The position numbers and the translations under genes are program-made. Shown here one piece after another: positions 9,262-61,896 of a DNA stretch of 64,000 nucleotides. The notes under the pieces are model-generated. The model ran no database searches and was not told the DNA's origin. It was given only the letters and a program-made list of their open reading frames with translations. Position 1 is the first letter of the stretch. The number at the start of each line of letters is the position of its first letter. The stretch is from Candidatus Doudnabacteria bacterium (GTDB taxonomy: Bacteria; Patescibacteriota; Doudnabacteria; UBA920; O2-02-FULL-48-8), in assembly GCA_016182875.1 (NCBI GenBank), contig JACPFQ010000004.1, forward strand, positions 99,203 through 163,202, read 5' to 3'.

Positions 9262-10002
9262 ATGAGCGGGCACAGCAAATGGGCGCAAATCAAACGGCAA
9301 AAAGCAGTCACCGACGCCAAACGCGGCTCGCTGTTTACGAAGCTGGCCAAGAACATCACGGTGGCTGTGCGCGAAGGCGGGGGAACGGACCCTTCATTCA
9401 ACTTTAAGTTGCGCATGGCCATTGAGCAGGCGCGCGACGCCGCCATGCCCAACGAAAACATTGACCGCGCCGTCAAACGCGGCAGTGGAGAAGGAAAAGA
9501 GGCGATTGAGCAAGTGGCTTACGAAGGCTATGGGCCAGGAGGGTCGGCATTTATCGTGGAGGCGGTCACAGACAACAAAAACCGAACGACTGCCAATGTC
9601 CGAAGTATTTTTGACAAGCATGGCGGACGATTAGGCGAACAAGGATCCGTTGGTTGGATGTTCGAATCCAAAGGGCAGATCCTGATTGAAAACTCCGCCT
9701 TCGCTAAAGCTTCGGCGGACAAGCAGCCTGGCAATCTCGCACTCGAGCTGATTGACCAAGGGGTCGAGGACGTAAAAGAAACTGAAAACGGCTTGGAAGT
9801 TTATACGCTTCCCCTTGACTTGGAAAAAACCAAGAAATTCATTGAGGACAAAAAAATCAAAATCTTAAGCTCTGAGCTAATCATGCGCCCGGCGCAAAAC
9901 CTGGAAGTCGCAGAACAGGATAAGAAAAAAGTCCAGAATCTAATCAATGCCCTGCAAGACGATGATGACGTAGTAAACGTCCATAGCAACGTTAATTTGT
10001 AA
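9262..10002 (+). CDS. yebC: YebC/PmpR-family probable transcriptional regulator
   Basis: MSGHSKWAQIKRQK...GGTDPSFNFKLR signature. Confidence 0.9.
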   Translation: MSGHSKWAQIKRQKAVTDAKRGSLFTKLAKNITVAVREGGGTDPSFNFKLRMAIEQARDAAMPNENIDRAVKRGSGEGKEAIEQVAYEGYGPGGSAFIVEAVTDNKNRTTANVRSIFDKHGGRLGEQGSVGWMFESKGQILIENSAFAKASADKQPGNLALELIDQGVEDVKETENGLEVYTLPLDLEKTKKFIEDKKIKILSSELIMRPAQNLEVAEQDKKKVQNLINALQDDDDVVNVHSNVNL

Positions 10003-10086
10003 TTTTAAATTATCAATTTTAAATATAATTTTTATTATTTAAATATTTTATTTAAAATTTAAAACTATAAATTTAAAATTTTTCTC
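10003..10086. other. Almost pure A+T spacer (~84 bp) with TTTAAA/AAATTTAAAA repeats between yebC and ruvC
   Basis: Only three non-A/T bases across the tract; repeated ttaaat/aatttaaaa units. Confidence 0.5.
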
Positions 10087-20874: not shown

Positions 20875-22013
20875 TGAAGCTGGAAAGCATTGCTTTAGAA
20901 AATTTCCGCAACTACTCAAAAATCGAGGTCAATATAAATTCCGACCTCGTTTTGATTTTGGGGGCGAACGCCTCCGGCAAGACCAATTTTTTGGAAAGCA
21001 TTTATTTTTTGTCCCGTTTGAAGTCGTTCCGCAGCCCAGACCAGTTTCTTGTTAAAATCGGAGAGAACTATTTTAAGCTGGCGGCAAATGTCATTGCGAG
21101 GCCGGACTTGATCCGGCCGAAGCAATCTCATGGAGAGATCGCCGCGTCGTCCCGCCAAGGCGGGACTCCTCGCGATGACCAAGAAAAAGACCTAGAAGTT
21201 ATAGTCCAAGTCACCCCTATTTTAAAGCGCAGCTTTAAACTTAACGGCCAGAAAATCAAGCGCGGGCTTTGGCAAAGTTTTGCCGCGGTGCTGTTCATTC
21301 CCACTGACCTGAATTTGTTTTCTTTGGGTCCGTTATTGAGGCGAAGATACCTAGATGACACTTTATCCCAAGTCAGCAAAAATTATGCTTTTGATTTAGT
21401 TTCTTTGGACCATGTACTTGGTCAGCGCAAGGCCTTGCTGGAAAAAATAGCACTTCAGCAAGCCCAGCGTGAGGAGCTAAGCTTCTGGAACGAGCAGCTG
21501 ATTACTTTGACTTTAAGCATCGGCCAGGAGCGGAAATGTTTTTTGGATTTTTTAAACGAGCGGTTGAACTCGGTCTATTCGCAGTTGTCCGGTTTCAAAA
21601 ATAAATTCGCGGTTGAATACAAAACTGATGCTCAGGGCGACCTGCATAAACTGATCAAAGAGCATGAGGGGGCGGAGGTTAGGTCCGGCCAAAACCTCAT
21701 AGGACCGCATCGGGAAGACTTTGTCCTTAACAAAGACGGATTGTTGAATGTTTATAATTCATCCCGCGGCGAGCTCCGCTCCCAAATCTTGGCGATTAAG
21801 TTTTTACAAGCTGAGTACCTGAACAGCCACGACTTCAAGCCAATTATCTTTTTGGACGATGTTTTTTCCGAGCTCGACGAGGAGCGCCGGATTAAATTAC
21901 TGGAGAATCTTTCTGGCCACCAGATTTTTATCACGACCACCGAAGAGCACCACTTACCGGAAATAAAACAAGCGCAAAAGTTAAAAGTCGAGAATGGACA
22001 GTTCCTCCCCTGA
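20874..22013 (+). CDS. recF: DNA replication/repair protein RecF
   Basis: Walker A (LGANASGKTNFLESI) and a signature/Walker B region near the C-terminus. Confidence 0.9.
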   Translation: MKLESIALENFRNYSKIEVNINSDLVLILGANASGKTNFLESIYFLSRLKSFRSPDQFLVKIGENYFKLAANVIARPDLIRPKQSHGEIAASSRQGGTPRDDQEKDLEVIVQVTPILKRSFKLNGQKIKRGLWQSFAAVLFIPTDLNLFSLGPLLRRRYLDDTLSQVSKNYAFDLVSLDHVLGQRKALLEKIALQQAQREELSFWNEQLITLTLSIGQERKCFLDFLNERLNSVYSQLSGFKNKFAVEYKTDAQGDLHKLIKEHEGAEVRSGQNLIGPHREDFVLNKDGLLNVYNSSRGELRSQILAIKFLQAEYLNSHDFKPIIFLDDVFSELDEERRIKLLENLSGHQIFITTTEEHHLPEIKQAQKLKVENGQFLP

Positions 22014-22046
22014 TACCCCCTCTAACTCCCCCTTCCAGGGGGAGAA
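22013..22046 (+). terminator. recF terminator hairpin that is also a minimal copy of the palindromic-element terminal repeats (TAACTCCCCC-ttcca-GGGGGAGaaTTA)
   Basis: CCCCC-TTCCA-GGGGG stem-loop followed by aattatttttct; its ends match those of the elements inside uvrB and valS. Confidence 0.55.
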
Positions 22047-22141
22047 TTATTTTTCTAAAAATTAGACAAATCAAAAGAGCGAGGCCGACCCATACGGGGT
22101 CAAACCTCGCCCTCTCGTCCGGTCGAATGACCGGAACGTGT

Positions 22142-23884
22142 CTATCTGTCTTCCTCCTCCCTTTCGTTATCGAGCTCCATGTGAAGGCCTTGTGAGACCC
22201 TCAACATGAATTCGCGGCGCTCGTTCGGCTTGCCGCCGAAGAACTTAAACCTTCTCTCGACCTTCTTGGGTTCGTGGGCCACCACGTGATCCGCGGTCAT
22301 CATATTGATGACCTTCTGTTCCGCCTCAAGCCCGTCGACATGCTGAGCGAGCGCGGTTACCGCACTGCGGGCTTCACCCGTGACCCGCTCGACGGCAGCG
22401 ATGCGGTCCATCATGGACTGCCGCAGCTCGGCACCGTACTTGGTAACGACTTCCGTGGCCTGCGCCCGCGCCGCTGTAGTGACCCGCGCCTCGAGCCCGT
22501 CGAGCCCACTGTACTGGATCCTCAGGGCAGCGAGCTGCTGGCCCTGCGCCTGAACTTGCCGACGGAGCGCGGTGATGTCAGCGCTTGGCTGCGGCTGGGT
22601 GACCTGCTTCTGCACCGCCTCGATGCGCTGCTGCAGTCGGTAACCCATGGCGTTGGTCTGGTTATCCATGACTGTCACGTATTTGTCGGAGACGATTGTT
22701 CGGCCGTCCTGGCAGGTGACACCGACCTTGGTAGCTACCTTCCGAGCGTTGACCGGGTCGATGTTGACCGTGCCCACCACTTGCGTGGGTGAAGCGCTCG
22801 TCACGGTCATGCTGACACCGCGCGTGATATTCACCGCCGTCGGGTTTCCGGTGCAGAGGTTGCTGCCCGACAGGGTCAGCATCTGCGGTACCGGGTGGTC
22901 CACGACGATGGTGTCCGGTGATATCGAGGTGATCTGTCCGGCGGCCTGTGCGAACGCTGCGTTCGCGTAGCCGCCAAACAGCAGCGCCAGGATGATCACG
23001 GGAACCACAGGAGCCGGAGCCGCGGGAACGGCGGGCTGAGCCGAGACTTCCGCCGAGTTCGGTCCCTCGCCAGACCCGTAGTACGCGCTCACGACGTAGA
23101 AGTATTGGGTGCCGTTCGTGAGCCCCGCTGCGTCGGTGTAGGTCGTCGCATTGGCCGTGCCGACGATTGTGTACGGGCCGCCGGCAGTCGTGGCGCGTTT
23201 GACCGTGTAGAACACAGCGCCTGTGATTGCCGCCCAGTTGAGGACGACCTGAGCGTTCCCTGGCGTTGCCGCAAGCCCTGTGGGAGCAGCAGGTCTGTGT
23301 GCTTCCTGAGCGCGCCGACGGACTTCGGCGTCGCGGTCCTCCGGTTGTGCAGGACCGCGCCGCCGTAAGAACCAGACGGCAATGATGAGCACGAGCAGTC
23401 CCACACCAGCCCAGACGAACGGGGCCAAGTTGATGGCCGCTGGCGGACAGCCGGTGGTCAGAACGGGCGTTCCCTGCGGGGTGTCCTTGCACTGGTCGAC
23501 GTTGTCCGCGACCTTGTCGCCGTCCGAGTCAGTGGCGGCCGGCGGCGGTTCCTGCGCCTTGTCTGCCGCCTGCTGCTGTTCTTGCGAACAGCCGTTGCGG
23601 AAGATGGGCACGCCTTGCGGGGTGTTGGCGCACTGGTCGTCGCTGTTCGGGATGCCGTCGCGGTCTGCATCCGCCACCGGGGTTGCCGGTTGCGGAGTTG
23701 GCGTTGGCGCGGGAGCCGCGGGCTGGCCCTGAGTGGCCGGTGGTGCCTGCGGCGCGGGCGCGGGTTGCGGAGTCGGCGGTTGCGCAGTCGCAGCCTCGGG
23801 CTCCTGTGGCACGACCGGAATCTGCGCGAACGCGCTGGCGCTGAGCGCCAGCATTGCGAGCACGAAAACGAACATTCTTATCAT
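22142..23884 (-). CDS. High-GC secreted/membrane surface protein. Order: signal peptide, Pro-rich linker, two TSP3-like Ca-binding repeats, TM helix, FN3-like domain, second signal-peptide-like segment, Cys-containing beta domain, long coiled coil
   Basis: I prefer ATG at 23884 (MIRMFVFVLAMLALSASAFAQ) with SD AGGAGGG 3 nt upstream over the track start at 24106. Repeats DADRDGIPNSDDQC and DSDGDKVADNVDQC. FN3-like segment NAQVVLNWAAITGAVFYTVKR...GTQYFYVVSAYY. Confidence 0.55.
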   Translation of the reverse strand: MIRMFVFVLAMLALSASAFAQIPVVPQEPEAATAQPPTPQPAPAPQAPPATQGQPAAPAPTPTPQPATPVADADRDGIPNSDDQCANTPQGVPIFRNGCSQEQQQAADKAQEPPPAATDSDGDKVADNVDQCKDTPQGTPVLTTGCPPAAINLAPFVWAGVGLLVLIIAVWFLRRRGPAQPEDRDAEVRRRAQEAHRPAAPTGLAATPGNAQVVLNWAAITGAVFYTVKRATTAGGPYTIVGTANATTYTDAAGLTNGTQYFYVVSAYYGSGEGPNSAEVSAQPAVPAAPAPVVPVIILALLFGGYANAAFAQAAGQITSISPDTIVVDHPVPQMLTLSGSNLCTGNPTAVNITRGVSMTVTSASPTQVVGTVNIDPVNARKVATKVGVTCQDGRTIVSDKYVTVMDNQTNAMGYRLQQRIEAVQKQVTQPQPSADITALRRQVQAQGQQLAALRIQYSGLDGLEARVTTAARAQATEVVTKYGAELRQSMMDRIAAVERVTGEARSAVTALAQHVDGLEAEQKVINMMTADHVVAHEPKKVERRFKFFGGKPNERREFMLRVSQGLHMELDNEREEEDR

Positions 23885-24133
23885 CACACCCTCCTGTGAG
23901 ATGTGAAAGTTGGCCTCGCGGCCAGTTGAAACGAAACGCTCTGACGGCGTTTGGCCGCGAGCCAGTGCGTGAACTCTAGTAGCACTGCTTTTATGTCTGA
24001 AATTTATCCTGATGTAAATCAGGATCAGGCACAAAAGTAATCCTACTAAAATGGGGAGGAGCGAGGCAGTCTTGGTAGACCAGCCTCGCCCCACTCCTTC
24101 TTGCATCTCAGCGCTTGCGCGCTGAGTTTCCTC

Positions 24134-25960
24134 CTATCTGTTGTCTTCCTCCGGTCCGCCGTTGGGTGGCGCACCGTTCCGGGTCTCGCACGGGGTGGCC
24201 AGACCGAGCGCCTCGGCGACTGCTTGCGACGCCGTCTTGCGCTGGTTGGGCTGTCCGCGTCTGAGGAACCTGCCGCCAACGCGGTCAGGCTCGTCGTACA
24301 CGACATGCTGCATCGCAATGCAGGTGCCGGTCTCGACGTTGCCCATCCTGCCTTGCAGGTTGTTGACGTACCCGGCCTGGGTTGTCAGGGTCTTCGCGAG
24401 CTCCCCGGCGTAGCTAAGCGTCTGGTCAGCAACGCTGCGCGTCGCCTTGCCTGCCTCTTCGGCTGCGGCAATGCGCGACACCATGCGCTCCTCGAGGGTC
24501 TGGAGGTCGCTGAGGACATCCGCACGCCGCGCGAAGGGAGCCCATGATGCCTGGAGAAGCTCGCCAGCTTTCGCGTGCGTCGGCTGGGCGGAGTAGTCCA
24601 GGTAGCGCTTGTTCCCCTCTTCCCGCCCGTAGACCTGCTGGAACTTCTCCTGCAGGTAGTGTGAGAAACGCGGGTCGCGTCCGAACCGCTCGGCCGTGAT
24701 GTCGAGCACGGTCGCCGATTCCTGGCTGATGATGCGGACGACCGAGTTGCCCGACGCGATGTCGCCTGCGTCGGTGTTCACCACGAACGCCGTGGTCCCC
24801 GGCATGGCAGTCGCGTCTGCCTGGAGCTTGCTGATGATGGTGTTGCCCTTCATCACAATCTCCGTAGTGGTGGCCACACCGGTGCCGGCGTTGATGCCCG
24901 TGACCTTGCCGAGCTTGGCGTTGCGCGGGCAGGCCATGGTGATGGTCACGTCCGCGGCGTTGCCGCCCTGCACCAGGTATCCGTTCTGCACACTGACAGA
25001 ACGGACGGTGCACGTCGGAACTGCAGGGGCCGCGGGAGCGGCGGGCTGACCCTGAGCAGGCACCTGTGCGGCTGCCGGCTGCGGCGCTGCCGGCGGGGCC
25101 GGGGCAGCCGCACCGGGAGCGGCCGGCGCCGTGGTGACGGGTGGGGTCGGCTGCTGGGCGAGGGCGCTGTTGGCGCCGAGCCCGAGCAGGATGGCGATGA
25201 CGATGCTTCTCATGACAGTTCCTCCGAGTTTCCGGTTGATGTTGATGCCGAACCCGATGACGAGTCCGACGAGAATCACGAACCCGACGGCCCCGCCGAT
25301 GACGATGTACCGCAGCTTCTGATCGGTCCGCCGCGTGTCCTGGCGGGCGAGTAGCGCGTTGTTGGACGCCTTGATCGAGTACTGCCGGTCCATCCACGAG
25401 TTGTCCGCCGACGAGGCGATTGCCTTCTCGATTCGTCCGATGAGCGAGGCTTCGACGTCGTTCAGGCGGTGCTCGACGTCAGTAGGCGACGCGTTGTACG
25501 GCGCGACCTTGGCGATGTAGGTTCGGGTCGCTTCGAGAGGCGGTTGCGACGAGTCGGTGACCTTGACCGTGACCGTGTAGTCATCGCCTGGGATTTCTTC
25601 GCCACGCGATGAATACAGGTAGGCCTGACTCTTGCTCGGCAACCAGACATCGAGAATGTCTCCGTTCTTGATCTCGTCGACGATCTCCCACTTGTAGGGC
25701 TCGGTCCCGCCGCGCGCCGCCAGGTTGAACTCCTTGTAGCGGCCGGATTCGAACGCGATGGTCGTGGGTTCGACGATTGTCAACGAACCGGTTGCTGTCG
25801 CGGGCGGCTGCTGGGTCGAACCCGTCGCGGGCGGCGCCTGCTGAGTCGAAGTACCGGGCTGGCGAATCGTCGCGGTCTGCGCGCCGAGCGGCACCAGGTT
25901 CAAGAGGAACCCGAGCAGCAAAATCGCTGCGCAGATGAGGTACTGAGTCAACTTCTTCAT
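24134..25960 (-). CDS. High-GC surface protein, paralogous architecture to 22142..23884. Order: signal peptide, Thr/Pro-rich linker, Ig-like domain, TM helix, second signal peptide (with internal RBS + ATG at 25213), Pro-rich linker, Cys-containing beta domain, coiled coil
   Basis: SD AAGGGAGAG before ATG at 25960. GGTEPYKWEIV...DDYTVTVKVTD resembles bacterial putative-Ig domains. Internal GGAGGA-6nt-ATG (M250, MRSIVIAILLGLGANSALAQQ) is in frame. Confidence 0.55.
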   Translation of the reverse strand: MKKLTQYLICAAILLLGFLLNLVPLGAQTATIRQPGTSTQQAPPATGSTQQPPATATGSLTIVEPTTIAFESGRYKEFNLAARGGTEPYKWEIVDEIKNGDILDVWLPSKSQAYLYSSRGEEIPGDDYTVTVKVTDSSQPPLEATRTYIAKVAPYNASPTDVEHRLNDVEASLIGRIEKAIASSADNSWMDRQYSIKASNNALLARQDTRRTDQKLRYIVIGGAVGFVILVGLVIGFGININRKLGGTVMRSIVIAILLGLGANSALAQQPTPPVTTAPAAPGAAAPAPPAAPQPAAAQVPAQGQPAAPAAPAVPTCTVRSVSVQNGYLVQGGNAADVTITMACPRNAKLGKVTGINAGTGVATTTEIVMKGNTIISKLQADATAMPGTTAFVVNTDAGDIASGNSVVRIISQESATVLDITAERFGRDPRFSHYLQEKFQQVYGREEGNKRYLDYSAQPTHAKAGELLQASWAPFARRADVLSDLQTLEERMVSRIAAAEEAGKATRSVADQTLSYAGELAKTLTTQAGYVNNLQGRMGNVETGTCIAMQHVVYDEPDRVGGRFLRRGQPNQRKTASQAVAEALGLATPCETRNGAPPNGGPEEDNR

Positions 25961-25989
25961 GACTTGCTCTCCCTTTTGCTAACGAGCGG

Positions 25990-26226
25990 TTATGGTTCAA
26001 CGACAGTCACGTTGACTGCCATCAGTACTGCGTCGAGGTCGAACGTGGCCTGCTTGCCGCGGATTCGTCCGCGCGGCACGTGGTCGTCCCGAATCTCGAA
26101 CTTGTCTCCGACGTGGTCGGGGCCCGTGAGGACTCTCACCTTCCAGACCATCCTGCTAGGGTTGGTTGGGGAAGGATTGAAGCCCACGACATAGCCGGTA
26201 TACGCCGGTGACCCTCTGATCGTCAA
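25990..26226 (-). CDS. Small hypothetical protein (78 aa, TTG start) leading the high-GC minus-strand operon
   Basis: SD-like AGAGAGG upstream of TTG; same high G+C; 30 nt upstream of the next gene. Confidence 0.35.
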   Translation of the reverse strand: MTIRGSPAYTGYVVGFNPSPTNPSRMVWKVRVLTGPDHVGDKFEIRDDHVPRGRIRGKQATFDLDAVLMAVNVTVVEP

Positions 26227-28215: not shown

Positions 28216-28791
28216 TTATTCCCTCAGCCCGGGTGCTTTGGCTTCGGGCGGGAGCTTGTCGTACAAATCAGAAATCAATTTGGAGACCGCGGTCGGGTTT
28301 GGGATGCGCGAGAACACGAACCGCTCGACTTCGCCGGCGGTTTGGATGTGGACATTGCCGTAATTTAAAAACGTCGGGAAAAAACCCTTAACCTCGGCCG
28401 TGACATCCTGCATGCGCGAGAGATAAACTTCGGAAATTTTGTGATGAATCAGGGAGTGCTGGTCAATGTCGACCACGCGCTCGTTGGTGACAATCTGGAC
28501 GTTGAGATAGTAAATCACCCAAAGCATGAGCAGGCCCAGGATCAGAAACAGCAGGTAGATGCTTTTGAGCAAAGCGTAAATTTCTTGGTAGGGAGAGACA
28601 AAGATAAAGGATGCGTAGTGGGGAAGGTATTGGTCAGCCAAAACCAGAATGGCCACGAACAGTAGCCAAAGTGCGAATCTGAGGGCAAATACAAACCAGT
28701 GCTGGCGGATGACGAGGTAAACTTCCTCGTTTTCCTGCTGGCCGGGGAACAGATTTTGCTTGAAGTGTTGTTTGAGGGTTGGCCAGTACAT
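28216..28791 (-). CDS. Hypothetical membrane protein (two TM helices plus a cytoplasmic domain)
   Basis: I prefer the start at M14 (MYWPTLKQ), where the repeated leader cassette ends exactly at the ATG; the track start is 28830. Confidence 0.5.
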   Translation of the reverse strand: MYWPTLKQHFKQNLFPGQQENEEVYLVIRQHWFVFALRFALWLLFVAILVLADQYLPHYASFIFVSPYQEIYALLKSIYLLFLILGLLMLWVIYYLNVQIVTNERVVDIDQHSLIHHKISEVYLSRMQDVTAEVKGFFPTFLNYGNVHIQTAGEVERFVFSRIPNPTAVSKLISDLYDKLPPEAKAPGLRE

Positions 28792-28796
28792 GATAG

Positions 28797-28868
28797 AATT
28801 TTGAATGATTAATTTTGAATTTTGATTCAAATTCGAATTTCAGAAATTAGAATATTCATTCGAAATTC
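28797..28868 (-). repeat. Copy 1 of a ~75-90-bp AT-rich promoter/leader cassette ending at the ATG of the downstream gene
   Basis: aattttgaatgattaattttgaattttgattcaaattcgaatttcagaaattagaatattcattcgaaatt; near-identical to copies 2 and 3. Confidence 0.6.
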
Positions 28869-28903
28869 CCGCCGGAGGCGAGGCTCGCCCAAGGCGGCAA
28901 AAC

Positions 28904-29128
28904 TCAAAATTTAATGCTGTTCAAATCGGTTTGGGCGGCGGCGAATAAGCTTGCGGCAATGATGATGTAAAGCAAAGACACGCTCGCGGAAACCAGTTTG
29001 GAGCGTCCGAAGCGGTTGAGGGCGTAGAGCGCCAGAAAGCTATAAAGCGCAAACCCGGCCATGAGGACATAGAAAACCAGCGCGATTATTGTGTGAATGA
29101 GATTTGTTGGTTCGTAGACAGTGAGCAT
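28904..29128 (-). CDS. Small hypothetical membrane protein (74 aa, 2 TM)
   Basis: The ATG coincides with the end of cassette copy 2; two hydrophobic helices. Confidence 0.5.
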   Translation of the reverse strand: MLTVYEPTNLIHTIIALVFYVLMAGFALYSFLALYALNRFGRSKLVSASVSLLYIIIAASLFAAAQTDLNSIKF

Positions 29129-29219
29129 GAATTTTGAATGATTAATTTTGAATTTTGATTCAAATTCGAATTTCAGAAATTAGAATATTCATTCGAAATT
29201 CTAAAATCGAAATTCAAAA
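29129..29219 (-). repeat. Copy 2 of the AT-rich promoter/leader cassette (between the ruvB stop and the small membrane-protein gene)
   Basis: gaattttgaatgattaattttgaattttgattcaaattcgaatttcagaaattagaatattcattcgaaattctaaaatcgaaatt... Confidence 0.6.
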
Positions 29220-30257
29220 TTATAATAAAGTCTCTCCTTTGGTTTCTTTTGCCGTAACTTTCAAATGCTCATAGGCCGCTGGCGTGGCTACGCGTCCTTT
29301 GGGTGTGCGGGCGATGAAGCCGAGCCTTAAGAGGTAAGGCTCGTAAACATCTTCCAAGGTTTCGGCTTCTTCCGAGGTCGCGGCGGCCAAGGATGTAATC
29401 CCCACCGGCCCGCCGCCGAATTTTTCGATAATGGTCAGAAGCATGCGCCGGTCGTTGGCGTCCAGTCCCAGGCTGTCGACCTCCAGCATGTCCAAAGCTT
29501 CCTGCGCCACCGAATCGATGATTCGCCCGGCGGCTTTGACCTGGGCGTAGTCGCGCACGCGCTTGAGCAGTCGATTGGCGATTCTGGGAGTTCTCCTCGC
29601 CCTGCGGGCGATTTCTTTCCGCCCGCCTTCGTTTATCTTGATTTTCAAAATATTGGCCGCCCGCTCAATGATTTTTTCGATTTCATCTTCTTCGTAATAG
29701 TCAAGCCGCAGAGTGGAGCCAAACCGGTCGCGAAGCGGAGAAGAAATAAGTCCGATCCGGGTCGTGGCGCCGATCAATGTAAATTTGGGAAGGTCAAGAC
29801 GCAGCGCTTTTGCTCCGGCGCCTTTTCCCAGGACAATATCCAAGCAGTAGTCCTCCATAGCCGGGTAAAGAATTTCTTCGACGACCTTGTTTAGGCGGTG
29901 GACCTCGTCGATGAACAAAACGTCATTGGGTTCAAGGCTGGTTAGGAGAGAGGCGAGATCCCCGGTTTTTTCTATGGCCGGGCCAGAAGTGATTTTGATG
30001 GCCACCCCGATTTCGCGGGCGATGATGTGGGCGAGCGTGGTCTTGCCCAGTCCCGGCGGCCCGTAGAGCAGAATATGCTCCAGCGTTTCCTTTCTTTTTT
30101 TTGCGGCATCAATGAAGATTTTGAGGTTGTCCTTGATTTTGGTTTGCCCGACGTACTCATTCAAGCTTTGCGGCCTCAGCGTTGCCTCAAAAAACCCTTC
30201 ATCTTTGGTTTGTTCTGGGTTGATGATGTCTATTTCTTCAGTGTTGGTGTTAATCAT
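29220..30257 (-). CDS. ruvB: Holliday junction branch-migration helicase RuvB
   Basis: AAA+ Walker [19 protein letters not shown]; RuvB C-terminal winged helix. Confidence 0.95.
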
Positions 30258-30275
30258 GGGTTAATTATAACAGCA

Positions 30276-30365
30276 TGAATTTTGAATTACTAATTTTGAA
30301 TTTTGATTCAAATTCGAATTTCAGAAATTAGAATATTCATTCGAAATTCTAAAATCGAAATTATA
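30276..30365 (-). repeat. Copy 3 of the cassette (upstream of ruvB), here followed by a 3-codon mini-ORF (ATG CTG TTA TAA) before the ruvB ATG
   Basis: gaattttgaattactaattttgaattttgattcaaattcgaatttcagaaattagaatattcattcgaaattctaaaatcgaaatt. Confidence 0.55.
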
Positions 30366-31791
30366 AATTCTCAAGAAACTTGATTCCATGATACACTCCC
30401 CAGCCGGAAGCACCCGCCGGCATATGCGGCCTGCTTTTTACGGTCCACGCCGTGCCCGCGATGTCGAAGTGAATCCAGGGAGTCTTGTCCACGAAGCTTA
30501 ACAGAAACAGGCTGGCCGTGATTGCCCCGCCCAGGCCCTTGTCGCCGGTGTTTTTGAGGTCCGCAATTTGGCTTTTAAGCTGGTCCTGGTATTCGTTCGG
30601 CAGGGGCATGAGCCACAATTTCTCTCCGGTCGCTTTCGCAGCTTTTGTCAGCTGCTGGTTATATTTTTCGCTGTTTCCGAAAGCCCCGGTCAGCTCGTCG
30701 CCCAAAGCGATGATGATGGCGCCGGTTAAGGTCGCGTAGTCGAGGATAAGCTTTGGCTGATAATGTTTCTTGGCGTAAGTAATGGCATCGGCCAAAATCA
30801 GCCGTCCTTCGGCGTCGGTGTTGATGATCTCTACGGTTTTGCCTGACATGGAGGTTAGGATATCGCCCGGCTTGGTCGCTCTTCCCGAAAGCAAATTTTC
30901 CGCGGACGGGATTAATCCCACCAGAGAAGTTTTAAGCTTGAGTTGGGCGGCAGCCTCGATTATTCCAAGGACCGTGGCGCCTCCGCACATATCGTACTTC
31001 ATTTCCTCCATTCGCTCCGCCGGCTTGATGGATATGCCGCCGCTGTCAAAAGTCAGCCCCTTGCCAATGAGCACAATCGGGTTTTGGTTCGAGGATTTTT
31101 TAGGAAGATACTCAATCACGATGAATTTAGGCGGTTCGTCCGAGCCGCGCGACACTCCAAGCAGCAGGCCCATGTTCTCTTTCTTGATATCTTTGGCGTC
31201 CAAGACTTTGAGTTTGAGCCGGTATTTGTCCGCAATCAGTTTGGCATGCTGCGCCAGATGAGCAGGCGTTGCGATGTTCGCCGGATGGTTGGCCAAATCG
31301 CGCGCTTTGTTTGCAGCCGATGCAACCATTGAGCCTCGCGCTATCGCTTTTTCCATGGCCTTGGTAATTCGGGGAACGGCCAAATAGATGTTTTCGAGAT
31401 TTATTTTTTCCTTTTCCTGTTTGTAGTAGTTAAATGAGTAGGAAGCAAAAACCGCGGCAAAGGAAATAATCTCAACGGCATCCGGGCTTTGAAGCTCCCG
31501 CAGGTCCCTAAGCAGGATTTGCAGCGAGGATGTCTTAAATTTTTTGGAAGCAGAAACAGCGGTCTGAATGGCCGTTCTTAAGCTTGCTGGGTTGAAGTTT
31601 TTATTTTCTCCCAAGCCCAAAAGCATCATTCGTCCCAGATTCTCTGAGTAAACCACGTGGGTTTCATTGGCCTTGCCTGTAAAATCTTGCAAGCCTAAAA
31701 CTTTAAACTCCTCGGCCGGCTGTTTTTTGGCAAACAAGGGAATGATTGTCAGGTCAGATTTATTGAGTTGTTTGGTCAGGCGGAGTTTCAT
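30361..31791 (-). CDS. pepA: Leucyl aminopeptidase (peptidase M17)
   Basis: NTDAEGRL signature and the conserved M17 catalytic region. Confidence 0.9.
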   Translation of the reverse strand: MKLRLTKQLNKSDLTIIPLFAKKQPAEEFKVLGLQDFTGKANETHVVYSENLGRMMLLGLGENKNFNPASLRTAIQTAVSASKKFKTSSLQILLRDLRELQSPDAVEIISFAAVFASYSFNYYKQEKEKINLENIYLAVPRITKAMEKAIARGSMVASAANKARDLANHPANIATPAHLAQHAKLIADKYRLKLKVLDAKDIKKENMGLLLGVSRGSDEPPKFIVIEYLPKKSSNQNPIVLIGKGLTFDSGGISIKPAERMEEMKYDMCGGATVLGIIEAAAQLKLKTSLVGLIPSAENLLSGRATKPGDILTSMSGKTVEIINTDAEGRLILADAITYAKKHYQPKLILDYATLTGAIIIALGDELTGAFGNSEKYNQQLTKAAKATGEKLWLMPLPNEYQDQLKSQIADLKNTGDKGLGGAITASLFLLSFVDKTPWIHFDIAGTAWTVKSRPHMPAGASGWGVYHGIKFLENL

Positions 31792-42406: not shown

Positions 42407-44539
42407 TCACTTAAACTTATGCCTCTTCATTCTTGTCTTCTCTCGAATTGCCGAAATTTGGTCGCGCAAGGCTGCGGCTTTTTCGAAATCCAAATTCCTG
42501 GCCGCCAAATCCATCTGATCGCGCAGTTCTTCCACCAGGTATGCGATTTCTTGCCTGCTCATTTTCGTTAAATCAATCCCTGATTCCTGATTCTTGATTC
42601 CTGATTCTATCTTCATGCCTGCCAGCCGAGATTCCTTAACAGCTTTCTGGATGCTCGCCGGAATGATGCCGTGCTTCTTGTTATATTGTTCCTGGATTTT
42701 GCGGCGGCGGGCGACCTCATCCATGGCCCGCTTCATCGAGCCGGTAACCTGGTCTGCGTACATGATGACGCGGCCATCGATGTGCCGGGCCGCGCGGCCC
42801 ATGGTTTGGATGAGCGAAGTGTCCGAGCGCAGGAATCCTTCCTTATCCGCGTCCAAAATCGCGACCAATGACACTTCCGGCAAGTCCAATCCTTCCCGCA
42901 GTAAATTTATCCCCACGACCACGTCATAAACTCCCAAGCGTAAGTCTCTCAAAATTTCCAGTCTCTGCAGGGTTTCAATGTCAGCATGGAGGTAATGAAC
43001 CTTGACCCCGTATTCAGCCAAATAATTGGAAAGTTCTTCAGCCATGTTTTTGGTCAGAGTCGTAACCAAAACCCGCTGGCTATTTTTTACCCGATTTTGG
43101 ATTTCCTCCATAAGGTCGTCTATTTGATTTTTGGTCGGCCGAATTTCGATTTCCGGATCCAAGAGGCCGGTGGGCCGGATTAACTGCTCGGCGACCTGCT
43201 TGGAAGCTTTTATCTCGCGCTCTTTGGCGGGCGTGGCAGAGACAAAAATCGTTTGATCGGTTTTTTTTTCGAATTCTTCGAATTTCAGCGGCCGGTTGTC
43301 TAGGGCGCTCGGCAATCTGAAGCCGTAGTCGACCAGAGTTTGTTTGCGGGCTGAATCGCCTTCATACATGCCGTTTATTTGCGGCAGGGTGATGTGGGAT
43401 TCGTCGATGAACAGCAAGAAGTCATCCGGAAAATAATCGAGCAGGGTCGAGGGCGGCTCTCCGGGCTTGCGGAAGTCCAAGTGGCGGGAATAATTTTCGA
43501 TGCCGTTAACAAACCCGGTTTCAATCATCATTTCGATGTCAAAGTTGGTGCGCTGTTCGATTCTTTGGGCTTCTAGGAGTTTGTCTTGACTTTTGAAAAA
43601 TTTAACCTGCTCAGCAAGCTCTGCCCGAATGTTTTCGATGGCGGCAAGCATTTTTTCCCTCGGGGTCACGAAATGCTTGGCTGGGAAGATGGTGAGTTGG
43701 CTTAGAGACGGATCGTTTTTAGACCGTAACTCCCCCGCTTTGCCTAATGCCTTTGCTCCCCCTCTTATCCTAAGAGGGGGTTTGTTTTCAGTCTTATCCC
43801 CCCTTGGAACAAGGGGGGATAAAGGGGGGTTAGAAGCAGAGGCTAAATCCTCCCCGGTCAGCGGATCATGTAAACTAATTTTCTCAATCTCGTCCCCATA
43901 AAAATTAATGCGATAGACTTTGTCTTCAGATGCAGGGATTATTTCTACCACGTCTCCACGTACCCTGTAAGTTCCTCTTCGAAGTTCGACGTCATTGCGC
44001 ATGAACTGCAGGTCAGTCAGCCGGCGCAAAAACTTGTCGCGCTTGATTTTGGCCCCGACTTTGATGGGGACGGAAAGCTCCAGGTAGTCGCCTGGGTTGC
44101 CCAGGCCGTAGATGCAGGAGACCGACGCGACAATCAAGACGTCTTGGCGACTAAGCAAACTTTGCGTGGCGGCGTTGCGAAGTTTGTCGATTTCTTCGTT
44201 GATTTCCGTTTCTTTCTCGATATAGGTGTCGCTTCGCGGAATGTACGCTTCCGGCTGGTAGTAATCGTAGTAGGAAACGAAATAATGCACGGCGTTGTCC
44301 GGGAAAAAATCCTGGAATTCCGAAGCCAGCTGGGCGGCCAGAGTTTTGTTATGCGAGATTACGAGGGTCGGTTTTTGGACAAGTGCTACGATGTTGGCCA
44401 TGGTGAAAGTCTTGCCGCTGCCCGTGACCCCGAGCAAAGTTTGGTAGCGGTAATTTTTTTTGAGGCCCGCAGCTAGCTTTTCGATCGCCTGCGGCTGGTC
44501 GCCCGAAGGTTTGAATGGTGACTGAAGCTGGAATTTCAT
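42407..44539 (-). CDS. uvrB: Excinuclease ABC subunit B, carrying an in-frame ~40-aa insertion encoded by a palindromic element
   Basis: UvrB helicase motifs throughout; the inserted segment [46 protein letters not shown] sits between the conserved DPLTGE and [13 protein letters not shown]. Confidence 0.93.
43727..43832. mobile_element. MITE-like palindromic element inserted in frame inside uvrB
   Basis: Terminal repeats TAACTCCCCCGCTTTG ... GGGGGGTTA; internal perfect hairpins CCCCCTCTTA-tcc-TAAGAGGGGG and ATCCCCCCTTG-gaa-CAAGGGGGGAT. Confidence 0.55.
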
Positions 44540-45307: not shown

Positions 45308-45410
45308 TGTTAATTCCTCCCCTAGAATAGGGGAGGTTAGGAGGGGTAGAGTACGAGCTTGAACCGTACCTCCCCTAGCCCCTCCTATTCTAGGAGGGGA
45401 ATTAAAATAT
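45308..45410. repeat. ~100-bp palindromic element (terminal inverted repeats TTAATTCCTCCCCTAGAATAGG / CCTATTCTAGGAGGGGAATTAA) filling the ruvA-femAB intergenic region
   Basis: Near-perfect 22-bp terminal inverted repeats plus internal sub-palindromes (GTACG...CGTAC). Confidence 0.5.
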
Positions 45411-57885: not shown

Positions 57886-58155
57886 TTGTATATGAAAACG
57901 CGGGCTTTTAATATTGCCTTGCCTCAAGAACTGGTGCAAAAGATAGATGAGGCCGCTCGAAAAGAATATCGCAATCGCAGCGAATTTATCCGCGAGGCGG
58001 TTTTGTTTCGTTTACAAGATTTGAAAAGTTGGGAAAGAATTTTTCAAGCGGGGAAACAGGCTGGAAAAAAGCTGAGGATTAAAAGCGAAGCGGATGTTGA
58101 CAAGATAGTATACGCATATCGCCATGGCCGAAAATCCAAAAAAGGTCGTAATTGA
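57886..58155 (+). CDS. Ribbon-helix-helix (CopG-like) antitoxin
   Basis: FNIALPQELVQKIDEAARKEYRNRSEFIREAV RHH pattern; overlaps the downstream PIN gene by 32 nt. Confidence 0.6.
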   Translation: MYMKTRAFNIALPQELVQKIDEAARKEYRNRSEFIREAVLFRLQDLKSWERIFQAGKQAGKKLRIKSEADVDKIVYAYRHGRKSKKGRN

Positions 58156-58552
58156 TACCAATGTTCTGGTGTCGGCGATCGTCTATGGCGGCAATCCAAG
58201 GAAGATTTTATCCCAGCTTTCAGCGAGAGAAATTTCGGCCGTAACCTCTGCCATTCTTTTGGCTGAATTGACCGATGTTTTGGCAAAGAAATTCAACTTT
58301 AACCGTGATGACATCCTGCTTATCGAAAGGCAAATCAAAAGACATTTTATTTTAGTTTATCCGCAGAAAACTGTTGATGTTTTGCCGGATAATAACCCAG
58401 ACAATCGTGTTTTAGAAGTTGCCTCCGAAGGAGATTGTGACTATATTATTACCGGAGACAAGGAACTGTTGCGGCTGAAGTTTTGGAATAGTATTGAAAT
58501 TTTAACTGCGTCAGAATTCTATGAAAAATTGTACATGGAGAAAAATAATTGA
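58124..58552 (+). CDS. vapC: PIN-domain toxin (VapC-like)
   Basis: VVIDTNVLVSAI...D...ITGD; PIN acidic residues. Confidence 0.75.
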   Translation: MAENPKKVVIDTNVLVSAIVYGGNPRKILSQLSAREISAVTSAILLAELTDVLAKKFNFNRDDILLIERQIKRHFILVYPQKTVDVLPDNNPDNRVLEVASEGDCDYIITGDKELLRLKFWNSIEILTASEFYEKLYMEKNN

Positions 58553-58714
58553 TTTCAAAGAGATTAAACAAGGCGGCGTTGATATAAGAACCTGCTTGTC
58601 TAACAAATGGTGTAATTACACCAAAAGTTAGAATAGGCCCTTATGCGCCGCATCCAGACTTTCCAGATGAAGAAAAATAAAAGAGACGCGTTAGCGGCTC
58701 TTTTTAAATTTTAT

Positions 58715-59716
58715 CTAGGCAGCCAATCCTAATTCCTCTTCCGGCGGCTGGGCAGCTTGAATGCGCGCTTCGATTCTTCGCCGAAGCATGGGGTCGACCG
58801 AAGTTAAATTCAATTCTTTGAGCAGCGGCAGAGCTTGCAGAGGTTTATTTGGGTCAGAGACCTCGGTTCTGAGCTGCTCCAAAAATTTCTCGGAAAAAAA
58901 TTGTCGCGCCAGCTCCTGGAAATCGGAGCGTGCTAGATCTTCGCCCTCCAATTTGCCACGCAACATTGCCTGCCAAACCGTCTGAGGCGAAACCCCAGTC
59001 TCTCGTGACAAATGGTCAATCATGATCTCAACCAAACTTATTTCCAAGTCATAAACTTTGTGGCGATGATCATCCGCGAACAGTGCTTTGAGCTTTTCTG
59101 TATTCGCCCGGTCTACAAAATCAGGATGGGCCTGCAGATATTCCAGCACGATTACACGCGACCGTTTCTCATTCAGTCCTTCCTCGAGTATGTCATAAGT
59201 GTCGTATTCCTCCGATACATCCTCATCGTTTGCATGATACAAGCTATAGCCGCGGCGGAGCAGATAATTTGGACTGTCACCTTCCTCGCCAAACATTCCG
59301 GTACAGTCACTTTTGGAAACGGCGTGCCCTTCTTCGTGGACCACAAACCACAGCCATAACAGTTCAGCTGGGAGTTGCCATCGTTTGGCGTGATTACGCA
59401 GTACGTCGGGATTCGCAAGTATGTGGTTGTCAGTGACCGAATAAAGTCCCTGGTGATCCAAAGTGCGGTCAACTGTAAACATCTCGGCGGGAATAAAATT
59501 CAAACTGTTTGGGTCAATATCAGTATGGATTAGGTCTCTGCCAAATCGATGCTTGAGCCATTCGAAATCAATTTTTGCCAGTACCTGCTCCATTTCCGGG
59601 TCACGCTCAGATTCGTGGATTTCTTTACGGACTTTTGACTCGCGTGCCGCTATTATCCCAGGGTCATCAGGCAAGCCTTGTAAATTGTAATATTCTCGAC
59701 TCCGTCTCATGGCCAT
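58715..59716 (-). CDS. Hypothetical protein with an HExxH zinc-metallopeptidase-like motif (VVHEEGHAV), co-oriented with and overlapping the valS stop
   Basis: HEEGH motif; 10-nt overlap with valS suggests co-transcription. Confidence 0.5.
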   Translation of the reverse strand: MAMRRSREYYNLQGLPDDPGIIAARESKVRKEIHESERDPEMEQVLAKIDFEWLKHRFGRDLIHTDIDPNSLNFIPAEMFTVDRTLDHQGLYSVTDNHILANPDVLRNHAKRWQLPAELLWLWFVVHEEGHAVSKSDCTGMFGEEGDSPNYLLRRGYSLYHANDEDVSEEYDTYDILEEGLNEKRSRVIVLEYLQAHPDFVDRANTEKLKALFADDHRHKVYDLEISLVEIMIDHLSRETGVSPQTVWQAMLRGKLEGEDLARSDFQELARQFFSEKFLEQLRTEVSDPNKPLQALPLLKELNLTSVDPMLRRRIEARIQAAQPPEEELGLAA

Positions 59717-61896
59717 TTTTGTATCATCAGTAAATCTTCATGCGTCAACTGCCAGACGGTTTCGGTCACGAAGGGCATGAACGGATGTAGAAGTTTTAAT
59801 TGGGTTTCCAGCGCAGTTTTAAGCATAAGTTGGGCTGACGCTCTGGTTTTTTCGTCAGCCAGTTTGGACTTGGATTCTTCGATGATTTTGTCGGCAAAGG
59901 TATGCCAGAAGTAATGGTAGAGGTCTTCGGCCGCATGGGCAAAGTCGAATTTTTCGAGCTGTTTCGTGATGCTTTTAACGAGAGAATCAAGCTCTTCGAG
60001 AATTTTTTTATCCGCAGGCAATAACGCCCCCGCTTTGGGTTGGGCTTTTTTACCCAGCCCCCGGCGGCTGGTGAGGGAGGAAGTTTCTCTTAATTTAAGA
60101 GGGGGTTGGGGGGAGTTATAATCCTCGGTGTTTTGCAGCACAAACCTTGCCGCATTCCAAATTTTGTTGGCAAAATTGCGATAACCCTTGACTTTCATTT
60201 CATCATACTTACTGTCATTGCCAGGGCCCACGCCGACAACGAGAGCCATACGCAATGCATCTGCTCCATATTTTTGGATGACTTCTACGGGGTCAATGCC
60301 GGTACCCTGCGATTTGCTGAATTTTTTGCCTTCAATGTTGCGAACCATGCCGTGCAAATAAACGACTTGAAAAGGAACTTCTCCCAGAAGAAACGTGCTC
60401 ATTAGAATCATTCTAGCCACCCAGAAGAACAGGATTTCATACCCCGGCGCCATGACGGAGGTGGGGTGGAAGGTTTTCAAATCTTGTATTTCTTTGGGCC
60501 ATCCCAAAGTAGAGAAAGTCCAAAGCGCAGATGAAAACCAGGTGTCGAGCGTATCTTCGTCTTGCGTCCAGCCATCTTCTTTTGGAGGTTCGATATCGCA
60601 ATAGATTGTAGTACCTTTATACCAAACTGGAATTCGATGACCGTACCAAAGCTGGCGGCTGATGTTCCAGTCGCGCAGATTGTCTATCCAGTTAAAATAA
60701 ACTTTTTCAAAGCGTTCGGGCAGGATCTTAACCCCACCGCTTCTTACGGCATTGTGCATTAACTGCTTCAGGCTTGTCTTTTTGCCATTTCTTTCGAATT
60801 CTTTGTTGACATCCACGAACCATTGCAGCTTGGGCAGAGGTTCGATAACCCCGCTGCTTCTCTCGGCTGTCGCGATGTTCATATCTATGTCTTCGGTTTT
60901 TTCCAGCAGGCCATTTTCTTTCAGCCAGCTGACTATTATCTCGCGCGCTTCTTTGGTTTTTTTCCCGGCCACCAGCGCGCCTGCCGCTTCAATCATGCGG
61001 GCATATTCATTGATGACCTGAACAGGCTTAAGATTTTGCCTAAGTGCTATTTCATAGTCGGTAATGCTGTGGGCTGGAGTCACGCCCACAGCGCCTGTGC
61101 CGAATTCCGGGTCGACTGTATCGTCAGCCACGATTTTTATGTTCAATTTGGTTCCGGCGAATTCGACTTCATATTCTTTGCCGATGAATTTTTTGTACCG
61201 TTTGTCCTTTGGGTTGACAGCCACGGCCACGTCGCCGACCTTGGTTTCGGGTCTGGTGGTGGCAATGGCAATCGGGAAATCTTTGGAATATTTGAAGGTA
61301 TAAAGTTGGCCTTTTTCGGTTTTATGCACGACCTCGTCGTCGGAAACGGATGTTTGGCCTTTCGGGTCCCAGTTGATAACGCGGGTGCCGCGGTAGATAA
61401 GCCCTTCATCGTACATTTTTTTAAACGCCGTGCGCACCGCCAGATTGCGCGGCTCGTCAAAAGTGAACGCCTCGCGCGACCAATCCGCCGAAGCGCCTAT
61501 GGTCCTGAGCTGCTTTTGGATAGTGCCCCGACTTGCGTCCACGAACTCCTCGACTTTTTTGACAAAAGCTTCGCGACCGATATCATGCCGATTTTTACCT
61601 TCTTCTTTGATCAGAATTTTTTCTACTTTGGTATTGGTCGCAATTGCGGCATGGTCCGTTCCCGGGAGCCAAAGGGTCTTATCTCCCTTCATCCGATGAT
61701 AGCGTGTCAAAATATCCTGGATCGAGGTCTCAAATGCATGACCGATATGAAGCGTGCCCGTGGCATTGGGGGGAGGCATCATAATCGTGAACGGCTCGCC
61801 TTCGAGATTGTCCGGGTTGAAATATCCCGATGATTCCCACAGTTTGTACACATTTGGCTCGCCGGCTTGATTATAGTGCTTAGGGATGTTTTGCAT
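59707..61896 (-). CDS. valS: Valyl-tRNA synthetase (short form lacking a C-terminal coiled coil), carrying an in-frame palindromic-element insertion
   Basis: HIGH (TGTLHIGHA), KMSKS-like (KKFSKSQG), ValRS editing-domain blocks; the inserted segment is SPQPPLKLRETSSLTSRRGLGKKAQPKAG. Confidence 0.88.
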   Translation of the reverse strand: MQNIPKHYNQAGEPNVYKLWESSGYFNPDNLEGEPFTIMMPPPNATGTLHIGHAFETSIQDILTRYHRMKGDKTLWLPGTDHAAIATNTKVEKILIKEEGKNRHDIGREAFVKKVEEFVDASRGTIQKQLRTIGASADWSREAFTFDEPRNLAVRTAFKKMYDEGLIYRGTRVINWDPKGQTSVSDDEVVHKTEKGQLYTFKYSKDFPIAIATTRPETKVGDVAVAVNPKDKRYKKFIGKEYEVEFAGTKLNIKIVADDTVDPEFGTGAVGVTPAHSITDYEIALRQNLKPVQVINEYARMIEAAGALVAGKKTKEAREIIVSWLKENGLLEKTEDIDMNIATAERSSGVIEPLPKLQWFVDVNKEFERNGKKTSLKQLMHNAVRSGGVKILPERFEKVYFNWIDNLRDWNISRQLWYGHRIPVWYKGTTIYCDIEPPKEDGWTQDEDTLDTWFSSALWTFSTLGWPKEIQDLKTFHPTSVMAPGYEILFFWVARMILMSTFLLGEVPFQVVYLHGMVRNIEGKKFSKSQGTGIDPVEVIQKYGADALRMALVVGVGPGNDSKYDEMKVKGYRNFANKIWNAARFVLQNTEDYNSPQPPLKLRETSSLTSRRGLGKKAQPKAGALLPADKKILEELDSLVKSITKQLEKFDFAHAAEDLYHYFWHTFADKIIEESKSKLADEKTRASAQLMLKTALETQLKLLHPFMPFVTETVWQLTHEDLLMIQKWP
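60022..60118. mobile_element. Second copy of the MITE-like palindromic element, in frame inside valS
   Basis: TAACGCCCCCGCTTTG ... GGGGGGAGTTA termini; internal CCCCCTCTTAAATTAAGAG palindrome; same family as the uvrB copy. Confidence 0.5.

Follow-up and report, generated by a model that had tools for sequence, protein, structure and literature searches.

The GC clusters, double-hairpin elements and 'byp' elements of fungal mitochondria are G+C-rich palindromic mobile inserts in the coding regions of compact genomes, and the R''/R' boxes of integron attC sites read RYYYAAC / GTTRRRY. Among the dispersed repeats described in bacteria are the Rickettsia palindromic elements (RPEs; Ogata et al. 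2000 Science 290:347; 2002 Genome Res 12:808; summarised in PMC10969869) and the MITEs (miniature inverted-repeat transposable elements), such as Correia, ERIC, Nezha, RUP and others (Delihas, reviews PMC2229807 and PMC3184786). Selfish DNA that lies in frame within proteins has so far been treated largely as a Rickettsia curiosity. Here we analysed a palindromic element found in frame within valS, the gene for valine-tRNA ligase (ValRS), in 64,000 nt of a contig of Candidatus Doudnabacteria, a member of the candidate phyla radiation (CPR, Patescibacteria). The element belongs to a family that extends the phenomenon to these ultra-small genomes and to at least two other phyla. The whole stretch of 64,000 nt is called the window, and coordinates without a contig name are whole-window positions.

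Results

A palindromic element lies in frame within valS

The product of valS is 100% identical to a Candidatus Doudnabacteria ValRS at NCBI. An initial annotation, made from the sequence alone, had marked in this gene a palindromic segment with inverted-complement ends, and the segment reads as described: on the coding strand it is bounded by TAACTCCCCCC and GGGGGCGTTA, which are inverted complements at 10 of 11 bases. From 60118 to 60022 the coding strand consists of TAACTCCCCCCAA, CCCCCTCTTAAATTAAGAG, AAACT, 45 nt of filler and AAAGCGGGGGCGTTA; the + strand begins with TAACGCCCCCGCTTTG, finishes with GGGGGGAGTTA and holds CTCTTAATTTAAGAGGGGG. The translated loop is also the one that had been proposed, running in frame from N594 to L625 and including YNSPQPPLKLRETSSLTSRRGLGKKAQPKAGALLP. 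As for the internal palindrome of the copy, it is present, but only as a 6-bp remnant, and the whole 97 nt folds no better than shuffled sequences (z = -1.3). Relatives of the 45-nt filler were sought in all fetched loci and none was found, so there is no sign of a nested second element family. An Rfam search of the copy gave no match at E <= 1, and no family reached its gathering score. The palindromic element in valS was thereby confirmed as a real feature of the sequence, whose parts are listed in Table 1.

A 16-mer had been noted as common to valS and uvrB. This sequence, TAACKCCCCCGCTTTG, has two sites only in the window, at 43727 (uvrB) and 60022 (valS), which differ by one base. A TAAC.CCCCC...GGGGG.GTTA pair within 130 nt was observed once in the window, as compared with 0.0 expected from 300 first-order Markov simulations.

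Alignment of ValRS sequences supported the claim that the segment is inserted relative to its orthologues. It is missing from about 55 of the 60 closest ones, and when compared with ValRS of Thermus thermophilus (1GAX), query residues 599-627 sit between residues 601 and 606. A loss of the 4-6 native residues of the site is shared by the window and its closest relative, on contig L118. In an AlphaFold2 model of ValRS, with a mean predicted local distance difference test score (pLDDT) of 85, residues 596-622 have a pLDDT below 50 and no secondary structure, and are flanked by confident helices at 566-589 and 627-648. The predicted form of the insert is a disordered loop on the surface, with a helix on either side.

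ValRS and its neighbourhood hold insertions of other kinds as well. Four relatives (P0002, P0015, P0020 and P0035, 865-878 aa; L118:3545-6142) carry an insertion of ~146 aa after a conserved WY motif (query residue 428), which in P0020 has a NUDIX Pfam match and represents a domain insertion in an aminoacyl-tRNA synthetase. In the window, positions 58124-59716, between a Gmad2-like gene and valS, contain a PIN-like open reading frame (ORF) of 142 aa and an ORF of 333 aa that overlaps the valS stop. Both are missing at the syntenic contigs L118, L239, L240 and L241, where Gmad2 abuts valS, and the segment looks like a local insertion.

The valS element is a copy of a large dispersed family

A scan of metagenomes with the 25-mer core CCCCCTCTTANNNTAAGAGGGGGAG matched at least 120 contigs; all copy counts given below are among the matches listed. 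The family has the layout TAAC[T/G]CCCCC - CCCCCTCTTAnnnTAAGAGGGGG - GGGGG[A/C]GTTA, a set of C5/G5 nested hairpins. Of 118 copies, 87 have TAAC[T/G]CCCCCC upstream of the core at a fixed distance of 12-13 nt, and (A)GGGGG[A/C]GTTA follows downstream of the core in many copies. Across the 118 copies conservation ends exactly at TAAC, with a weak A/T preference just outside it. This weak preference is the only consensus at the insertion sites, and the insertion-site preference that the initial annotation had considered was not supported. Simple units measure 40-53 nt, and two-hairpin composites of ~100 nt and multi-layer nested composites are common, giving an overall range of about 40-110 nt.

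The valS copy has TAACTCCCCCCAA immediately ahead of CCCCCTCTTA and, at the 3' end of the coding strand, GGGGGCGTTA, which is the GGGGG[A/C]GTTA block of the family. Compared with the core CCCCCTCTTAnnnTAAGAGGGGG, its left arm and loop are whole, and the right arm is cut to TAAGAG, leaving more than 3 mismatches to the full pattern. An nhmmer profile made from 26 metagenome copies alone recovered the window copies in valS and uvrB (Table 1), a copy in valS of contig L118 (E = 2.4e-12) and another in-frame copy in tsaD of the same contig (E = 3.1e-9), and gave E = 0.029 for a decayed remnant at the same ValRS loop on contig L239. Over the window, the profile found no significant copy besides those in valS and uvrB. 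Intact copies fold far better than shuffled sequences, as observed for uvrB and for L118 (z = -4.8). The valS segment is a copy of a large dispersed palindromic repeat family, and valS and uvrB represent, as the initial annotation had argued, independent in-frame insertions of this family in essential genes.

A scan of 596 Gb of genome contigs with the shared 16-mer TAACNCCCCCGCTTTG gave matches at the chance rate in all phyla, since 15 specified bases are too few for a space of this size. Its sole CPR match (L072) was rejected as a family copy, being ordinary coding sequence. A search of protein databases with a 66-aa concatenation of insert peptides found nothing. We found no earlier description of the family in the literature on CPR bacteria or the other carrier phyla, in a coverage outside which most subscription journals fall.

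Nearly all deep genic copies use the reading frame of the palindrome that is always open

The core frame CCC CCT CTT Ann nTA AGA GGG GG, encoding PPLxLRGG, never contains a stop, while the +1 frame always contains TAA and the +2 frame is open only with a pyrimidine at the start of the loop. Because the core is palindromic, the same rules hold on the opposite strand. Among the non-redundant metagenome copies, 24 of 126 (~19%) lie at least 60 nt inside ORFs of at least 600 nt, and 23 of these 24 deep genic copies use the always-open frame (19 sense and 4 antisense), yielding [H/N]N[A/S]PQ-PPLxLRGG peptides. The hosts are unrelated housekeeping genes, identified by Pfam as those for a DinG-type helicase, UDP-glucose dehydrogenase, Mur ligase, MiaB and RsmA, and by eye as those for LepA, DnaG, DinB, MetAP and glycosyltransferases. 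The downstream frame is kept in all genic copies observed. Since the palindrome has a frame that is free of stops whichever way it is oriented, and nearly every deep genic copy uses that frame, in-frame status is best explained by selection, which agrees with the selection for frame preservation that had been proposed for the two window copies. The frame bias also argues that the inserts are translated, and against their excision or ribosomal bypass, for which the frame would be irrelevant.

The always-open frame encodes LxLRGG or LRGG family-wide, and PPLRIRGG at 43755-43780 in uvrB. LRGG is the C-terminal motif of ubiquitin and ISG15 and the target of deubiquitinase-type proteases. The palindrome brings such a motif into the exposed loops of a large number of essential proteins, almost certainly as a by-product. 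Host ORFs on four metagenome contigs (L198, L234, L170 and L151) contain further in-frame repeat-derived peptides alongside the core, such as ATKQSRDMSQ...LLRSSETDSLAMT in a Mur ligase and PSERSESRGKQSQQDRRVRLWRTRD, present twice in a DinB, suggesting that several palindromic families colonise coding regions in these organisms.

Copies occur in several phyla and on viral contigs

Exact-sequence look-up identified carriers in Candidatus Portnoybacteria, the 'Patescibacteria group', a Nitrospirae bacterium (RIFOXYA2_FULL_44_9), a Deltaproteobacteria bacterium and Thermodesulfobacteriota. Seven viral contigs of IMG/VR hold the core with the same flanks, and in three the copy is in frame in an ORF. 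Such a spread, over several phyla and on to phage contigs, had not been anticipated in the initial annotation. Copies are single and dispersed, with no locus of three or more elements in 962 kb, and are also found in intergenic DNA.

The ValRS loop and other positions are occupied repeatedly

The closest relative of the window ValRS is P0002 on contig L118 (83-85% amino-acid identity), whose gene has an intact 67-nt element, TAACTCCCCCCGA-CCCCCTCTTAAATTAAGAGGGGG-AGAAACTGCGTCAGGTAAAGC-GGGGGAGTTA, at the same site. As compared with this element, the window copy has lost 6 nt (GGGGAG) of the 3' arm of the hairpin, and the interiors of the two are wholly different (50 nt in the window versus 20 nt in L118). 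Given the common site, the lost arm and the unique 45-nt filler, the description 'active or recently active' is an overstatement for the valS copy. The simplest reading is that the insertion is old and shared with L118.

In a neighbour-joining (NJ) tree, taken as a rough guide, the query and P0002 were sisters, while L239, which bears the remnant, was distant and had neighbours without the insert. The left junctions differ among the three lineages (DY^N, DFDN^N and FVYN^N, with ^ at the junction), while all three have GTT(A/G)^TTGCC as the right junction. P0015 and P0020 have different hairpin inserts, of the SPLAGE type, in the same ValRS loop. The loop is thus occupied in at least four lineages and constitutes a recurrent landing site. 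Short hairpin inserts of a different sequence (TTCTCCCCTTGCGGGAGAA and TGTCCCGCCCTCAGGCGGGACA, peptide SPLAGE...) were seen in this loop at L240:3472-3600 and L241:12212-12340.

A sister genome, L249, is syntenic with the window from 38 to 53 kb. It has long imperfect palindromes at L249:10688-10870, which corresponds to the uvrB loop at 43727-43832, and at L249:8810-8917, which corresponds to the ruvA-femAB spacer at 45310-45405. Both are of unrelated ACG/CGT-rich sequence, also starting with TTAACG, with z = -2.2 and -4.0, respectively. This suggests that palindromes are turned over or replaced at fixed sites, and the presence of palindromes at the same UvrB loop and spacer indicates that certain positions are recurrently occupied, being either permissive or targeted.

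The uvrB copy and other palindromes of the window

In UvrB the insert is missing from 118 of the 120 closest orthologues, and query residues 233-279 remain unaligned against UvrB structures of the PDB. The intergenic palindrome between ruvA and the FemAB-like gene (Table 1) gave a marginal match to the family profile (nhmmer E = 0.068) and, in Rfam, only sub-threshold matches to generic hairpins (miRNA precursors); it probably represents a related but distinct family. The recF hairpin at 22026-22044, which the initial annotation had taken for a mini-copy of the element, gave no significant match to the profile, and hairpins of this type were absent from 727 kb of family-bearing loci. It looks like an ordinary intrinsic terminator. 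A further candidate, TAACTCCCCC at 19287 in dnaA, was rejected as a third genic remnant and is native coding sequence, since DnaA aligns there to B. subtilis DnaA without a gap.

Table 1. Palindromic elements of the window, their parts and the genes that hold them
Feature	Position	Strand	Basis
valS (valine-tRNA ligase, 729 aa), host gene	59707..61896	-	ORF call; matches PDB 1GAX, E = 6.5e-173
97-nt palindromic element copy, in frame, codes N594-L625	60022..60118	-	nhmmer profile of 26 metagenome copies, E = 1.4e-6
5' terminal inverted repeat, coding strand, TAACTCCCCCC	60108..60118	-	same block kept at -13 to -3 in 118 metagenome copies (among matches listed)
Core-hairpin remnant CCCCCTCTTAAATTAAGAG	60087..60105	-	3'-arm GGGGAG deleted as compared with L118 copy; 6 bp pair
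45-nt interior filler with own small hairpins (GGGCTGGGTAAAAAAGCCCAACCC), unique to window valS copy	60037..60081	-	
3' end block AAAGCGGGGGCGTTA (3' terminal inverted repeat)	60022..60036	-	subfamily signature common to uvrB and L118 copies
uvrB (710 aa), host of second copy	42407..44539	-	PDB UvrB matches, E = 2.5e-263
106-nt intact two-hairpin copy in uvrB, in frame	43727..43832	-	nhmmer E = 4.8e-6; RNA fold z = -5.3
Perfect core hairpin CCCCCTCTTATCCTAAGAGGGGG (10-bp stem), uvrB copy	43758..43780		0 expected by chance
Second perfect hairpin TTATCCCCCCTTGGAACAAGGGGGGATAA (13-bp stem), uvrB copy	43794..43822		
96-nt intergenic palindrome, ruvA / FemAB-like gene spacer (TTAA and C-rich arms, CCTCCCCTAGAATAGGGGAGG)	45310..45405		RNA fold z = -7.2
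recF terminator-like hairpin TAACTCCCCCTTCCAGGGGGAGAATTA	22023..22049	+	nhmmer E = 1.6

Other repeats were observed in the window. A 98-nt AT-rich repeat is present three times around ruvB (28791-28888, 29124-29221 and 30272-30369; 76-96% identical) and, with its internal inverted symmetry, represents a second, unrelated repeat family. An AT-rich inverted repeat with 41-nt arms (78% complementary) lies at 9994-10080, in the spacer before a ruvC-like ORF. Positions 22001-26000 have a G+C content of 0.64, as compared with ~0.47 elsewhere in the window. GC-rich motifs recur in the two large ORFs there (22142-24106 and 24134-25960, - strand; repeat families D2 and D3), which may encode Ala/Pro/Gly-rich surface proteins or be foreign DNA.

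Discussion

Our results make it probable that the valS segment is a copy of a short (about 40-110 nt) nested-hairpin DNA that is selfish, mobile and non-autonomous, of the kind represented by MITEs, RPEs and the doublets of repetitive extragenic palindromes (REPs) known as REPINs. In this explanation, a copy would have entered, as DNA, the part of valS that encodes a loop where the anticodon-binding domain of ValRS begins, and would then be transcribed and translated along with the gene. It would have survived because one frame of the palindrome, CCC CCT CTT Ann nTA AGA GGG GGA (PPLxLRGG), is free of stops in both orientations, because the net length is a multiple of three, and because the 32 extra residues would form a disordered surface loop between two helices that leaves the enzyme undisturbed. 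The in-frame status of the copies would reflect selection acting on insertions and not a frame-aware mechanism. The element would be moved in trans by an enzyme and be neutral for the host. The TA at both ends of the element and the weak A/T preference outside are consistent with an IS630/mariner-type duplication of TA; an equally open alternative is a hairpin-specific mechanism of the HUH class, similar to that of REP-associated tyrosine transposases (RAYTs) or IS200, with TAAC as the recognition tetranucleotide.

Several observations weigh against this explanation. No transposase-like ORF was seen among the 42 window ORFs of at least 117 aa, whose N-termini were read by eye. Transposition itself and translation of the insert, the latter argued from the frame bias, are inferences. 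From TAAC to GTTA, some in-frame copies measure 1 mod 3 (49, 67, 97 and 106) and others 2 mod 3 (41, 41 and 50), so that no single length of target duplication fits. Finally, the valS copies of the window and of L118 agree at 31 of 32 and 14 of 15 positions of their terminal blocks (45 of 47, 96%), while fourfold-degenerate sites of the two genes are 42% identical (P about 5e-15), which rules out that an orthologous relic has simply decayed neutrally. In NSPxPPLKLR, each of the 10 third-codon positions is identical as well. Such termini require that the ends be constrained as DNA or RNA, that other copies homogenise them, or that insertion has recurred at this site, and homogenisation or re-insertion may have taken place once the lineages had split.

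A broader form of the mobile-element explanation, which we offer only tentatively and consider doubtful, is that these are cross-phylum 'protein-coding palindromes' of CPR bacteria, Nitrospirae, Deltaproteobacteria/Thermodesulfobacteriota and their phages. They would be moved by an enzyme specific for hairpins or single strands, and their ends would be actively kept uniform through repeated re-insertion at identical, permissive sites or through correction from copy to copy or arm to arm. If true, this would explain both the 96% identity of the termini in genes whose synonymous sites are saturated and the different palindromes of sister genomes at identical positions.

The identity of the terminal blocks and of the third-codon positions, together with the occupation of this ValRS loop in four or more lineages, could also mean that the element is kept at valS for a host function, as a binding site, a pause site, an mRNA-stability element or a new ValRS loop. 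We consider this improbable, as the interiors of the window and L118 copies are wholly different, the hairpin of the window copy is broken, the encoded loop is predicted to be disordered and most ValRS orthologues manage without it. Moreover, the same sequence is found in many unrelated proteins and in intergenic DNA, and L249 holds unrelated palindromes in its uvrB loop and ruvA-femAB spacer. Near-identical termini despite saturated synonymous divergence would likewise be expected if the window and L118 copies, and the L239 remnant, were not orthologous and resulted from recurrent, site-preferring insertions or conversions, with the family active after the lineages split. Such a history agrees with interiors that resemble different subfamily variants, with left junctions that differ beside a common right junction, and with the distant position of L239 among neighbours without the insert, although the NJ tree that places it is a rough guide only. 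It is conceivable but on the whole unlikely, given that no target consensus surrounds the 118 copies, that the window copy already has a deletion and a unique filler, and that the shared loss of the native 4-6 residues is simplest as a single event.

Other readings concern the nature of the element itself. As an imperfect palindrome of 40-110 nt that has ...AAC at its left bound and GTT... at its right, spread across phyla and with a tyrosine-recombinase-like gene near one locus (L197), it might be an attC-like site or another substrate of tyrosine recombinases and not a transposon-type repeat. Copies are, however, single and dispersed, without arrays of the same orientation, and lie inside housekeeping genes; the bases beyond TAAC are unconserved, so that the 7-bp R boxes are missing, and no intI was seen, which together make this reading very improbable. 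The hairpins of intact copies are very stable and have their ends paired, which is the sort of signal that known systems of bypass or excision rely on, and the insert could in principle never reach the protein, being removed from the RNA or skipped by ribosomal hopping as in T4 gene 60 and the mitochondrial 'byps'. The use of the stop-free frame by 23 of 24 deep genic copies, the kept downstream frame and the window valS copy, which no longer folds in a gene that is still intact, leave this with hardly any probability. The initial annotation had itself raised the prospect that the likeness of valS and uvrB is a chance coincidence of C and G runs. The bare 10-mer TAACTCCCCC does occur by chance in the native coding sequence of dnaA, and the 16-mer alone matches unrelated genomes at the chance rate, but the valS/uvrB similarity is multi-block, collinear and recovered by an independent profile, while zero such hairpins or pairs are expected by chance. 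With hundreds of external copies of the same architecture, coincidence is already refuted for practical purposes.

The mobile-element explanation has consequences beyond this locus. Copies on phage contigs could carry the family between hosts. The inserts inflate and distort alignments, domain boundaries and phylogenies of markers such as ValRS, UvrB, TsaD, LepA and RsmA in metagenome-assembled genomes, and could be masked with a simple profile. The family also represents hundreds of natural loop-insertion experiments in essential proteins. It poses the puzzle of which enzyme moves a nested hairpin of 40-110 nt across phyla and why the ends are conserved at orthologous sites. The cross-phylum spread, the carriage by phages, these conserved ends and the turnover of palindromes at fixed positions are the features that could raise its importance.

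The likeness to known systems is partial in each case. As with attC sites, the copies are imperfect palindromes of similar length with ...AAC / GTT... bounds; unlike them, they are inside essential genes and not in cassette arrays, have no intI nearby and conserve only (A)TAAC / GTTA(T), positions further out being random. An identity as integron attC arrays was rejected on this organisation and on the missing R boxes. The fungal mitochondrial elements likewise enter coding regions as palindromes and are either accommodated in frame or bypassed, but they are organellar and unrelated in sequence, and the ribosome skips byps, whereas for the present family the frame bias argues for translation. 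REPs and REPINs, mobilised by RAYTs (HUH Y1), and palindromes derived from IS200/IS605 share with the family long imperfect hairpins, a conserved terminal tetranucleotide and the lack of a clear target duplication, and a homogeneity within genomes of the kind seen in REPINs could explain the conserved ends. However, the tetranucleotide is TAAC/GTTA here and GTAG/CTAC in REPs; REPINs are extragenic by definition, while both window copies and the 24 deep genic metagenome copies lie within ORFs; and no RAYT or Y1 gene was identified among the ORFs of the 64-kb window, read by eye. MITEs resemble the family in their small size (<~300 bp), terminal inverted repeats, multiple dispersed copies and occasional intragenic in-frame fusions, and the terminal TA would suit them too. 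They differ in that, for the family, no parent insertion sequence with matching ends was found (64-kb window, ORFs by eye) and no target duplication is consistent, and the genic fraction and cross-phylum spread are unusual for a MITE. By analogy, the closest counterparts are the RPEs, with which the family is functionally one phenomenon: both are dispersed palindromic repeats that lie in frame in many unrelated housekeeping genes and also between genes, are co-translated (as the frame bias suggests here), occupy positions compatible with protein fold and function, and have no associated transposase. RPEs measure ~100-150 bp and are confined to Rickettsia and close relatives, whereas the present family, with its 40-110 nt, C5/G5 nested hairpins and TAAC/GTTA ends, is set apart by size and composition and extends over several phyla and viral contigs.

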